From Escherichia coli (lineage in GTDB: Bacteria > Pseudomonadota > Gammaproteobacteria > Enterobacterales > Enterobacteriaceae): a DNA stretch of 64,000 bases. The stretch lies in assembly GCF_016903815.1 (NCBI RefSeq), contig NZ_CP069973.1; one strand, given 5' to 3'. The position numbers and the translations under genes were made by a program. The notes beneath the pieces were generated by a model, which was not told the DNA's origin, searched no databases, and worked only from the letters and a program-made list of their open reading frames with translations. Positions 26,612 to 61,220 of this stretch are shown here, piece by piece. The first letter of the stretch is position 1. Every line of letters begins with the position of its first letter.

Positions 26612-26718
26612 GAGAGATATGAAGTCTGGACATAAACCTGAAGGCAGCATACGAGGTTGTGAATAGCGTTAAGGACAACCTGACTTAACCCCGTTCCGTC
26701 ATGGTTATGCTGCTCTTC

Positions 26719-26757
26719 TGTAAATATCCTGGCATTAGTAATGCCAGGATATTTACA
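26719..26757. terminator. 39-bp perfect palindrome between convergent ykgG and ykgH (candidate bidirectional terminator)
   Basis: TGTAAATATCCTGGCATTA-G-TAATGCCAGGATATTTACA, 19-bp perfect arms. Confidence 0.5.
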
Positions 26758-26853
26758 GTGAAAAAGACAGGCATCCATTCCTGAAAACGGGTTCCCTTCC
26801 CGGTCATTGTCACTTCAGCTTTATACAGGCACTCTCTATCAGAATGCTGTTTA

Positions 26854-27522
26854 TTACTGCCCAGAGTTTTGTTGGTATTCATCTACCATTTTTTTGACAA
26901 GGCAAAACATTACAGAAATCACAATGCTTAGAAAAAATCCCAGAATCAGGCAAATGGCAGCAGGATATTTACTTTTTATTTCCGGTGAGCTTATAGTTAC
27001 ACAGCCATCACCGTTCGGATACAATGACCAGTTCCTGGTCAGGTATATCATTTTTGTATAAAGCTCACTGTTAATTGCTGAAGGTGTTTGTATCTCATCG
27101 AGAACTTGCCTGCCATTATGGTATTCTGACGCATACCATTTGATAATAGACGCCTGCACGCGAGATATTTCCGCTTCAGCAGTTGGTAAATCTCTCTTAT
27201 CTCCTGACCATTCCAGCTTTATTTCTCTGTTCTTGACATCTGGGCTGGTCTGAAAAAATGTAGTAATTCGCTGAATAACATCTTCAGTCATTGTGGTCTG
27301 ACAGGCAAAGTTATTATTGCTATCACAGCTAACAAGTATGCCTGGTGTTGTCTGGTTTATTTTTAGGCTGTAACTCACTTTTATATTATCTTTATTGATA
27401 TACAGAAACAACAGCACCATTGCCATACAGATAGTTATAATAAAAAGGATAATACGAAACTTTTTCTTCAGATAAAATAAAATCTCAATCAGATCGATAT
27501 CCTGTTTGATTTGTTCACTCAT
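26854..27522 (-). CDS. ykgH: Membrane protein of unknown function
   Basis: 222-aa ORF with hydrophobic segments near both ends; symbol by synteny. Confidence 0.6.
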   Translation of the reverse strand: MSEQIKQDIDLIEILFYLKKKFRIILFIITICMAMVLLFLYINKDNIKVSYSLKINQTTPGILVSCDSNNNFACQTTMTEDVIQRITTFFQTSPDVKNREIKLEWSGDKRDLPTAEAEISRVQASIIKWYASEYHNGRQVLDEIQTPSAINSELYTKMIYLTRNWSLYPNGDGCVTISSPEIKSKYPAAICLILGFFLSIVISVMFCLVKKMVDEYQQNSGQ

Positions 27523-27732
27523 AATATATCCAGAAAATAAAATCTGCCGCAGATAAATGAATTAATAGTCTGTATCAGGAGTGTTCGGGTTAAATATCAG
27601 CAAAAAACCAGCATCATGAATACTGGATATGAAGCATGAGAGTTACCTCAGTGTTTTATATAAGGATTCGGTCCTCATAGTAGAACGGTAACTCTCAATC
27701 TAATCGGTTCCTGAGTCAGTTCACATAACGAC

Positions 27733-29403
27733 TCATTTTTTCACTCTCACCGGCATCCCATTTGCCACAAAATATCTTGCCGTGCTCCTCGGCAACGCTT
27801 CTTGCCCGCGAATCATATCCGCTATTTTCTCGCCAATCATAATCGTCGTGGCGTTCAAATTGCCGGTGATAATTTGCGGCATAATTGACGCATCCACCAC
27901 GCGCAGGCCTTCCAGCCCGTGTACGCGGCCTTCGCCGTCAACCACTGCCATCTCGTCATAACCCATTTTGCAGGTACCGCACGGGTGGAAGGCGGTTTCG
28001 GCGTGGTTACGCACGAACTCATCGAGCTGCTCATCCGTCTGGCATTCGACACCGGGGCTGATTTCGCGGCCACGATACTGATCCAGCGCCGGTTGATGCA
28101 TGATCTCGCGGGTGATGCGAATTGCGTCGCGGAACTCCTGCCAGTCCTGCTCGTGCGACATGTAGTTAAACAGAATCGCTGGATGCTGGTGCGGGTCGCG
28201 GGATTTAATCCGCACATGCCCACGGCTTGGCGAGCGCATCGATCCGACGTGGCACTGGAAGCCGTGCTCTTTCACTGCGTTCGAGCCGTTATAGTTAATC
28301 GCCACTGGCAGGAAATGGTACTGAATATTCGGCCACGCAAATTCCTCACGGCTGCGAATAAATCCGCCTGCTTCAAAGTGGTTGCTGGCACCAACGCCGG
28401 TGCCGCCAAACAGCCACTCCGCACCGATTTTCGGCTGATTCCACCACTGCAGGGCAGGGTAGAGGGAAACCGGTTCTTTGCACTCATATTGCAGATACAT
28501 CTCCAGGTGATCCTGAAGATTTTCGCCGACGCCGGGTAAATCATGCACCAGCGGAATATCAAACTCCGCCAGCAGTTCAGCGCTACCCACGCCGGAACGT
28601 TGCAGGATCTGCGGTGAGGCAATCGCGCCTGCACATAACAGCACCTCTTTATTCGCCGCCGCGCGGGTCGGAATGGTGCTGTCGCCTTCCAGCCACTCGA
28701 CGCCCACCGCGCGTTTGCCGTCAAAAATGATGTGATCGGTCATGGCGTGAGTACGAATGGTCAGGTTAGGGCGCGATTTGGCCTGATCGAGATAGCCACG
28801 CGCGGTGCTGGCGCGACGGCCATGCGGCGTGACGGTGCGATCCATCGGGCCAAAACCTTCCTGCTGATAGCCGTTGAGATCGTCCGTGCGCGGGTAGCCC
28901 GCCTGCACGCCCGCTTCAATCATCGCTTCAAACAGCGGATTGACGCCGGGTTTGGAGGTGGTGACGCTCACCGGGCCATCACCGCCGTGGTAGTCGTTCT
29001 CGCCCACGTCGCGAGTCTCGGCCTTGCGGTAGTAGGGCAGGCAGTCGAGATAACTCCAGTTCTCCAGGCCAGGTTCTTGCGCCCAGTTGTCGAGATCCAG
29101 CGCGTTGCCACGGATGTAGCACATGCCGTTGATCAGCGACGATCCACCCAGACCTTTACCGCGTCCGCACTCCATGCGGCGGTTATTCATAAACGGTTCA
29201 GGTTCCGTTTCATAGGCCCAGTTGTAGCGTTTACCCTGTAGCGGGAACGCCAGCGCTGCGGGCATCTGGGTGCGGAAGTCAAAGCGATAGTCCGGGCCGC
29301 CCGCTTCAAGCAGCAGCACGGAGGTATTCGGATCTTCAGTCAGACGGGTAGCGAGAACGTTGCCGGCTGAGCCGGCACCAATAATGATGTAGTCAAATTG
29401 CAA
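27733..29403 (-). CDS. betA: Choline dehydrogenase (GMC oxidoreductase)
   Basis: 556-aa product beginning (M)[20 protein letters not shown] from a TTG codon 7 nt after AGGAGG. Confidence 0.9.
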
Positions 29404-33664: not shown

Positions 33665-33703
33665 AAAACCGCGCCATGTCTGCATATGGCGCGGTTTCTC
33701 TTA
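33665..33703 (+). terminator. Rho-independent terminator after betT
   Basis: AAACCGCGCCAT-loop-ATGGCGCGGTTT perfect 12-bp stem followed by TCTCTT. Confidence 0.7.
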
Positions 33704-61140: not shown

Positions 61141-61220
61141 TATTGTCGGATGCGTCGCCTGGCGCATCCGACACCATGCGCCGATGCCTGATGCGACGCT
61201 TACCGCGTCTTATTATGGCT
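61141..61220. repeat. Pair of REP elements (BIME-like) between prpE and codB
   Basis: TGTCGGATGCG-TCGCCTG-GCGCATCCGACA perfect 11-bp hairpin, then GCCTGATGCGACGCTTACCGCGTCTTAT matching the REP consensus. Confidence 0.7.

Follow-up and report, generated by a model that had tools for sequence, protein, structure and literature searches.

Within the 64,000-nt stretch of Escherichia coli DNA analysed here (the window; RefSeq assembly GCF_016903815.1, contig NZ_CP069973.1), betA, the last gene of the betIBA operon, and ykgH (27522 to 26854) are both encoded on the minus strand, so a transcript runs from betA through an inverted repeat in the intergenic region to ykgH. The outer arms of the repeat (TGAGAGTTACC and GGTAACTCTCA) are 11 nt each and 100% complementary, with 39 nt between them (Table 1). 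An earlier note on this DNA had listed perfect inverted repeats of 10 bp at this place; they are present, and perfect pairing extends one base further on either side. Read in the RNA, the repeat begins 35 nt after the betA stop codon and lies on the sense strand.

Perfect 11-nt inverted repeats with spacers of 3 to 60 nt are expected 0.77 times per shuffled 64-kb window and occur six times in the real one, so the bare pattern proves nothing on its own; this is the only one of the six with a long spacer. The repeat is marked as non-random by other evidence, namely its fold, its identity to the leaders of insertion sequences (ISs), and its match to a covariance model. The longer relic of which it is a part is absent from the RefSeq annotation.

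Table 1. Coordinates of the features between betA and ykgH in the window, in minus-strand order
Feature	Position	Strand	Basis and remarks
Whole relic, left end of the IS, about 111 nt (IS nt 1-111)	27629..27739	-	blastn and alignments; outermost 3-4 nt approximate
Decayed left terminal inverted repeat	27714..27739	-	alignment; matches TGTATTAGTCGCGACTTGATCTGACA at 16 of 26 positions; extends over the betA stop codon
betA stop codon TGA	27733..27735	-	aligned with IS nt 5-7 (TTA in live copies)
Decayed subterminal segment	27698..27713	-	conserved CTTGAAA of live copies; CGATTAG in the window
Leader hairpin	27636..27698	-	covariance model and fold; outer stem intact, inner stems partly decayed
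5' arm of the outer stem	27687..27697	-	minus-strand sequence UGAGAGUUACC
Nested inner stems and apical loop between the arms, 39 nt	27648..27686	-	three E. coli haplotypes in the 5' half
3' arm of the outer stem	27637..27647	-	reads GGUAACUCUCA; first GG ends GAGG, last A starts AUG
Relic Shine-Dalgarno sequence GAGG, 8 nt before AUG	27646..27649	-	live copies have GAGG or AAGG there
First three transposase codons ATG CTT CAT	27629..27637	-	identical to ATGCTTCAT of many live copies
Deletion joint, 2-nt microhomology AT	27629..27630	.	BLAST split at query 107/108; junction sequences
Terminator-like hairpin (8 bp, 3 G-C pairs, 3-nt loop), then U6	27602..27626	-	scan and minimum-energy fold

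Identity of the feature

Of 5426 E. coli genomes searched with a 75-nt segment, 5341 have the locus. The segment also matched, at 83.6 to 84.9%, the regions directly upstream of an IS481-family transposase gene in ET245 and of a decayed copy on plasmid M11. When the 1201-bp IS of ET245 was compared with the window by blastn, the only match was at 27628-27701 (84% over 75 nt); tblastn of the transposase against the window returned nothing significant. Along the minus strand come the terminal repeat, the subterminal stretch, the hairpin, GAGG, and ATG CTT CAT, after which homology ends. Order and spacing are those of intact copies, with homology to the terminal repeat, the leader, and the start codon in the right order for a relic of an IS481 element. 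Since only three transposase codons are left and the rest of the gene and the right end are absent from the window, the feature is classed as a relic and not as an element; no target duplication of the relic was recoverable.

The IS would once have inserted at the very 3' end of betA, its transposase gene pointing away from betA. BetA ends in ...PVRVKK here, in ...PVRAKK in the closest database cluster, and in ...PVRR or longer C-termini in other relatives, which is natural length variation across genera.

The best explanation, to which we give a probability of about 0.9, is that 27629-27739 represents the left end of an IS481-family element in fossil form, with the repeat as the outer stem of the hairpin in its transposase-mRNA leader, a structure that would damp translation in live copies and is probably a passenger here, the island-free state of the site having arisen by deletion. 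Within this explanation, four points are shown directly: the homology, the anatomy, the covariation of the structure among live copies, and the deletion polarity.

The ET245 element (1201 bp) is bounded by 26-bp terminal inverted repeats (TGTATTAGCTCAGACTTGATCTGACA and its partner) and encodes a 346-aa transposase that scores 282.8 bits against NF033577, "IS481 family transposase" (cut-off, 224). Live copies measure 1195 to 1209 bp, have TGT...ACA tips, and are flanked by 7-bp target duplications at more than 15 loci. The marks of an IS481 reference element (DDE transposase, terminal inverted repeats, and target duplications) were all found, and copies of IS length with such tips and duplications indicate that the group is, or recently was, mobile. 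A scan for relatives (one genome per species) confirmed at least 558 relatives among the at least 600 pattern matches listed, and 80 were kept; these are 70 to 93% identical at the protein level, come from Gamma- and Betaproteobacteria, and in several cases lie on contigs of exactly IS length. The group (TGTATTAGT... termini, about 1.2 kb) was found in Enterobacterales, Alteromonadales, Acinetobacter, Nitrosomonas, and Pasteurellaceae. The relic in the window shares with it the left terminal repeat (decayed), the leader (84%), the Shine-Dalgarno (SD) sequence, and three codons, but is about 111 nt long and lacks the transposase, the right end, and the target duplication.

The earlier note suggested looking for further copies of the repeat, and many exist: a relic at ylbG in most E. 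coli, intact copies in approximately 77 to 118 E. coli genomes, and hundreds in other genera. Another relic of this IS group is the K-12 pseudogene ylbG, which is located downstream of mnmH, at a different locus outside the window, and occurs in 3367 of 5426 genomes. Its arms are the same (TTGAGAGTTACC and GGTAACTCTCAT), its terminal repeat is intact, and its hairpin scores 77.4 bits; compared with the betA-side relic it is much better preserved, retaining about 120 N-terminal transposase codons.

One of the two origins proposed in the earlier note, a small repeat-flanked element remnant, is borne out as far as a mobile-element remnant is concerned. Its anatomy is not, as the arms form an internal leader hairpin and the true terminal repeat (TGTATTAGTC...) lies decayed further out. 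A MITE in the strict sense, a 61-bp unit with the arms as its terminal repeats, would be in keeping with the short AT-rich core and the perfect 11-bp inverted repeats that enclose it. This is hardly credible, however: no target duplication flanks the unit (GCA on one side, ATC on the other), it never occurs alone, every copy found having an IS481-type terminal repeat on one side and a transposase start on the other (intact or relic), and the true termini are TGT...ACA with 7-bp duplications, the arms being internal. A reading as a REP/ERIC-type repeat was rejected.

Fold of the hairpin and the terminator question

All 63 nt form one long nested hairpin on the minus strand, which is the betA-sense strand, and a 71-nt segment folds at -26.1 kcal/mol (z = -6.1 versus shuffles). 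The 39-bp segment between the arms is not a loop, because it contains nested inner stems and a 5-nt apical loop. Live IS copies retain GUUUUGAU/AUCAAAAC in this inter-arm region, together with an apical stem that shows compensatory changes. Little of the inner stems survives in the K-12 version, of which a 161-nt region folds like shuffles (z -0.68).

A covariance model (R1) was built from 38 distinct live-element leaders, with the E. coli relics left out. Its sole site in the 64-kb window was 27698..27636 on the minus strand (39.7 bits, E = 3e-7), with a plus-strand echo of 26.7 bits. Live copies score 51 to 89 bits, and the K-12 and O157 versions of the betA-side relic score 32 to 33 bits. 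Rfam scans of the window region gave chance-level eukaryotic matches only.

The other origin proposed in the earlier note, a long-loop terminator for betIBA, is not supported. The repeat does stand downstream of the operon's last gene and has a strong stem, but no U-tract follows its 3' arm (AUGCUUCAUAUCC), which argues that it is not a terminator, and its structure is inherited from the IS. Intrinsic terminators have a G+C-rich stem and a loop of about 3 to 8 nt, whereas here an 11-bp stem contains 5 G-C pairs and its arms are 39 nt apart, or else the hairpin is a 63-nt composite. A simple consensus terminator scan passed over the repeat and called the neighbouring hairpin at 27626-27608 with its UUUUUU. 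That the repeat itself is the intrinsic terminator of betIBA is thus very unlikely.

The neighbouring hairpin is unrelated to the 63-nt hairpin region, which lies 10 nt upstream of it on the minus strand. It is not IS-derived but part of the ykgH-side flank, is found outside the island in O157 and A33, and carries a stem-breaking T>G change in K-12. With its U6 it is the likelier betIBA terminator in this strain. Term-seq tables (Adams et al. 2021, PMC7815308), from conditions in which bet was poorly expressed, list no 3' end between betA and ykgH, their only entries here being Rho regions located within betA and downstream from ykgH.

The leader hairpin in live copies

All of the IS leaders folded (48/48) gave the same three-tier nested hairpin, mostly at -20 to -37 kcal/mol, with -15 kcal/mol for the most divergent (L085). 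Their arms show compensatory variants (GAGAGTTACC/GGTAACTCTC, GAAAGTTACC/GGTAACTTTC, GAGCGTTACC/GGTAACGCTC, GAGGGTTACC/GGTAACCCTC, and GAGAGTTTCC/GGAAACTCTC): GAGAG/CTCTC is found in most copies, GAAAG/CTTTC in Acinetobacter, GAGCG/CGCTC in Nitrosomonas and Methylotenera, GAGGG/CCCTC in three lineages, and GTTTCC/GGAAAC in Pasteurellaceae. In an alignment anchored only by the motifs GTT[AT]CC and GG[AT]AAC, 92% of the outer-stem cells are paired and 7 of 12 pairs show double changes; covariation is 0.251, compared with 0.093 in shuffles (0 of 500 reach 0.251) and 0.02 to 0.07 in slid controls. For the whole structure (41 distinct leaders, 25 pairs), 89.7% of cells are paired and double changes occur in 14 of 25 pairs, in an alignment (A8) fitted to the covariance model and hence leaning towards structure. 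RNAalifold found no structure in a raw MAFFT alignment of the leaders, in which Acinetobacter-type 3' arms were misaligned by 2 nt; this alignment was replaced by the anchor-based arm alignment and the covariance-model alignment.

The 3' arm runs from the GG of GAGG/AAGG to the A of AUG, in the window as well as in 47 distinct IS leaders (live and E. coli). In live copies TG follows directly, completing the ATG of the 346-aa IS481 transposase. Both marks of an SD-sequestering hairpin, an arm that pairs the ribosome-binding site (RBS) and start codon and a pairing conserved by compensatory change, were found. By pairing the GG of the SD sequence and the A of AUG with their upstream complement, the 3' arm would hide the translation start. 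Because the pairing falls on these bases, we infer, as in comparable ISs, that the hairpin keeps transposase translation low in live elements. It may also block translation of transcripts reading in from outside; in IS10 and IS50, fold-back pairing inhibits read-through transcripts specifically. A promoter scan of the live leader found no sigma-70 consensus. The conserved TTGAAA-N17-TTTGAT (9/12 match, without the -11 A) is, as a promoter, a weak candidate at best, and native transcripts starting inside the hairpin are speculation.

Antisense RNAs are known from other ISs (RNA-OUT of IS10, art200 of IS200), and in live elements the hairpin might chiefly belong to a small antisense RNA whose transcription runs outward over the end of the IS; the window would then hold its fossil. 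Rfam holds no cis-regulatory entry for the IS481-group leader hairpin; it gave just a below-threshold antisense match to psRNA2 (RF02349, "Proteobacterial sRNA"). This family aligns full-length to the antisense of the live hairpin plus terminal repeat at 43.0 and 42.3 bits (E ~1e-7) and to ylbG at 31 bits, and its consensus contains the reverse complement of the IS group's arms and terminal repeat. The outer stem, being almost all Watson-Crick, folds on either strand, with an R1 antisense echo of 28 to 35 bits. Given the full-length match in live copies, an antisense RNA is possible, as in IS10 and IS200, and the conserved structure could belong to it, wholly or also, the latter being compatible with an mRNA leader, as in IS200. 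As the chief identity of the hairpin, however, we rate it rather unlikely. The matches (31 to 43 bits) all fall below the gathering score of 65, so that the IS group, which has its hairpin on the opposite strand, is not a member of psRNA2 by the Rfam criterion. The window relic gives no psRNA2 match (E<=10, even in a 281-nt scan), and the origin and experimental status of psRNA2 were not traced in the literature. Cells with G.U outnumber those with A.C by 64 to 17 on the sense strand, a count that weakly favours that strand, the structure having been chosen on it. Rfam psRNA2 itself looks like an IS end and is likely of IS origin.

The island and the deletion joint

About a third of E. coli genomes carry a hyxB (upaB)-hyxA-hyxR-ipbA (fimX) block, the island, between ykgH and betA at the cut point of the relic, and in approximately 1900 of 5100 matching E. 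coli genomes the intergenic region is split at the joint given in Table 1. In A33, the flanks of the joint are separated by 6,163 bp comprising hyxB, hyxA, hyxR, ipbA, and more of the decayed transposase; here blastn with the ET245 IS gave 76% over 163 nt, reaching IS nt 1198 of 1201. Recognisable decayed transposase codons follow ATGCTTCAT in A33, O157, and AMSHJX01, all island bearing, where the DNA match runs through the joint unbroken at 76% and residues 44 to 89 are 45% identical. In the window, in K-12, and in two other empty-site strains, ATGCTTCAT is followed by the ykgH-side flank, and the flanks share AT alone.

An insertion could not recreate an in-register continuation of the transposase, so the island-free allele must be a deletion derivative. 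On this sequence argument, the empty ykgH-betA site must represent a deletion scar, and the "island borders" must represent deletion end-points. The deletion would have removed the decayed transposase from codon 4 onwards, and with it hyxB-hyxA-hyxR-ipbA, up to the ykgH-side flank, and would have brought the relic hairpin to its place upstream of the unrelated hairpin with U6.

With 7 nt between the repeat and the joint, and with a tyrosine-type invertase (IpbA/FimX) among the products of the island, the repeat might be a recombination or attachment site for that enzyme in inserting or excising the island. There is virtually no chance of this: the joint falls outside the repeat, at a 2-nt microhomology and without direct repeats, the 39-nt spacing is unsuited to recombinase core sites, hundreds of IS copies carry the same repeat in genomes that have nothing to do with the island, and the sequence across the joint is transposase-derived.

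Present-day role and significance

In the betA 3' UTR, the relic hairpin is most likely a passenger with no function of its own. This rating follows from the equal invariance of the unpaired ATGCTTCAT, the loss of inner pairing in K-12, and the perfect arms kept by ylbG. The hairpin could have been co-opted and kept by selection as a 3'-UTR element of betIBA, acting as a 3' exonuclease barrier, a pause site, or one half of a composite terminator with the downstream hairpin and U-run. Its position close behind betA on the sense strand and its stable fold are in keeping with such a role, and in the lineage of the window the inner stem has been re-formed as a well-paired helix (UAUGAGGA/UCCUUAUA). 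None of the 22 arm positions differs among seven E. coli haplotypes, whereas 21 of the 87 other relic columns vary (24%; Fisher p = 0.006), which leaves co-option a small chance. Yet IS inheritance fully explains the structure, and no U-tract follows the hairpin. The invariance extends beyond the arms to the adjacent unpaired codons, the ylbG relic has the same perfect arms in another context, and the K-12 version has little inner pairing left, its region being no more stably folded than shuffles. Nor is there a Term-seq 3' end here, though bet was poorly expressed in those conditions. If co-option were true, an IS leader structure would have been domesticated by an osmoprotection operon.

With the passenger reading, a puzzling repeat beside a well-studied operon is resolved as an unannotated IS fossil, and its truncation point gives direction to a polymorphism, the island-free site of K-12 and of this strain being derived and not a pristine target. 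A widespread IS481-family group is found to have a covariation-supported leader hairpin over its RBS, and, as a by-product, the K-12 pseudogene ylbG is linked to the same element.

The ykgH-betA intergenic region appears in several strain-engineering and chromosomal-integration papers. If it serves as an integration site, telling a terminator from a fossil has some practical value.

Comparison with known systems

PAI-X (the UpaB cluster, GI-4) was described as inserted between the core genes betA and ykgH (PMC4844996). The relic is its betA-side border, and the window carries the island-free allele. In contrast to the published insertion view, the truncated relic indicates that the island-free allele derives from the island-bearing one by deletion.

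The element behind this unannotated fossil is of a known kind, and the logic of its leader structure is known from other ISs. In IS200, a stem-loop in the 5' UTR sequesters the SD sequence and lowers 30S binding and transposition, as established by toeprinting, stem mutations, and transposition assays (PMC4513863); in ISPpu9, the RBS is blocked by a 5'-UTR structure (PMC8450116). The tnpA 5' UTR of IS200 (Ellis, Trussler & Haniford 2015, PMC4513863) likewise forms a transposase-leader hairpin of about 65 to 70 nt whose 3' side pairs with the SD region, and by analogy low transposase translation would be the expected effect here too. The two differ in IS family, transposase type, and sequence, and in the IS481 group the pairing additionally takes in the A (often AU) of the start codon.

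ylbG, a K-12 pseudogene, is a second relic of the IS481-family element whose fossil left end overlaps the betA stop, and is better preserved than the betA-side copy. It lies downstream of mnmH in an E. coli K-12-type chromosome, outside the window. Its terminal repeat is intact, the arms of its leader hairpin (77.4 bits) are identical to those of the betA-side relic, and about 120 transposase codons remain (DNA identity, 82%); 3367 of the 5426 E. coli genomes carry it.

Between the arms of the betA-side leader hairpin, the 5′ half of the inner part occurs in three sharply different E. coli versions, CTA-CTATGAGGACCG, CCAGAGAGGGGGACCG, and CCAGGTATGGGGACAG (window versus the K-12-like locus L001 and two other ykgH-betA loci, L087 and L088). 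The differences fall in a cluster of ~14 nt in otherwise similar sequence. A well-paired inner stem is restored in the window's version, which could be the product of hairpin-templated (quasipalindrome) mutation.

The A-run directly 5′ of the betA stop (window 27736-27741) also differs in length between E. coli strains (window, L087, and the further ykgH-betA locus L089). Six A's in the window and K-12 give a BetA C-terminus of ...PVRVKK*; O157:H7 betA, as read from sequence, has seven, so the frame shifts at the last codon and BetA is six residues longer (MSRDLN), with the added codons lying in the IS relic. A coding sequence of the same extended length is annotated in strain 1428 (1689 versus 1671 nt).

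G+C content is 31-40% in ykgH and the ykgH-betA spacer (window 26650-27735), compared with 54-62% in betA and 48-55% in ykgEFG, on which basis ykgH and the PAI-X/UpaB island (hyxB-hyxA-hyxR-ipbA, absent from the window) may be one low-GC acquired block; if so, the IS relic is the block's true betA-side border.

Upstream of ykgH, a T>G substitution breaks the stem of a terminator-like hairpin in K-12-type sequence (L001; GCTGG to GCGGG), and the following U-run is shorter there (CUUUUU) than in the window; betIBA termination at this site may therefore be less efficient in K-12 than in the window strain. Between the convergent ykgG and ykgH lies a perfect 41-nt palindrome (20-bp stem, CTGTAAATATCCTGGCATTA-G-TAATGCCAGGATATTTACAG) with no U-run, where microRNA-type Rfam matches were rejected as spurious. 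It falls within the ykgH 3′ UTR, proposed as a putative sRNA by RIL-seq studies (PMC5145812, PMC8175672). Four more perfect inverted repeats in the window (arms of at least 11 nt, spacers of 6-10 nt) are probably ordinary terminators.

Coordinates of features in the window and at related loci
Feature	Location	Strand	Source
Inner part of leader hairpin	27648-27686		
Terminator-like hairpin	27608-27626		
ykgG/ykgH palindrome	26718-26758		
Perfect inverted repeat	19709-19740		
Perfect inverted repeat	20795-20822		
Perfect inverted repeat	33666-33697		
Perfect inverted repeat	61144-61173		
ylbG relic	L092 572-1038		
RF02349 match	L005 2511-2705	+	Rfam model
RF02349 match	L008 1298-1498	-	Rfam model
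RF02349 match (ylbG locus)	L092 499-670	-	Rfam model

The full model of RF02349 ("psRNA2"), for which a literature search found no source publication, aligns to the antisense strand of the left end of the relic's IS group, covering hairpin, terminal repeat, and flank at 31-43 bits, all below the gathering score of 65. Its seed resembles the reverse of an IS end, which hints at an antisense RNA or else a mis-filed repeat.
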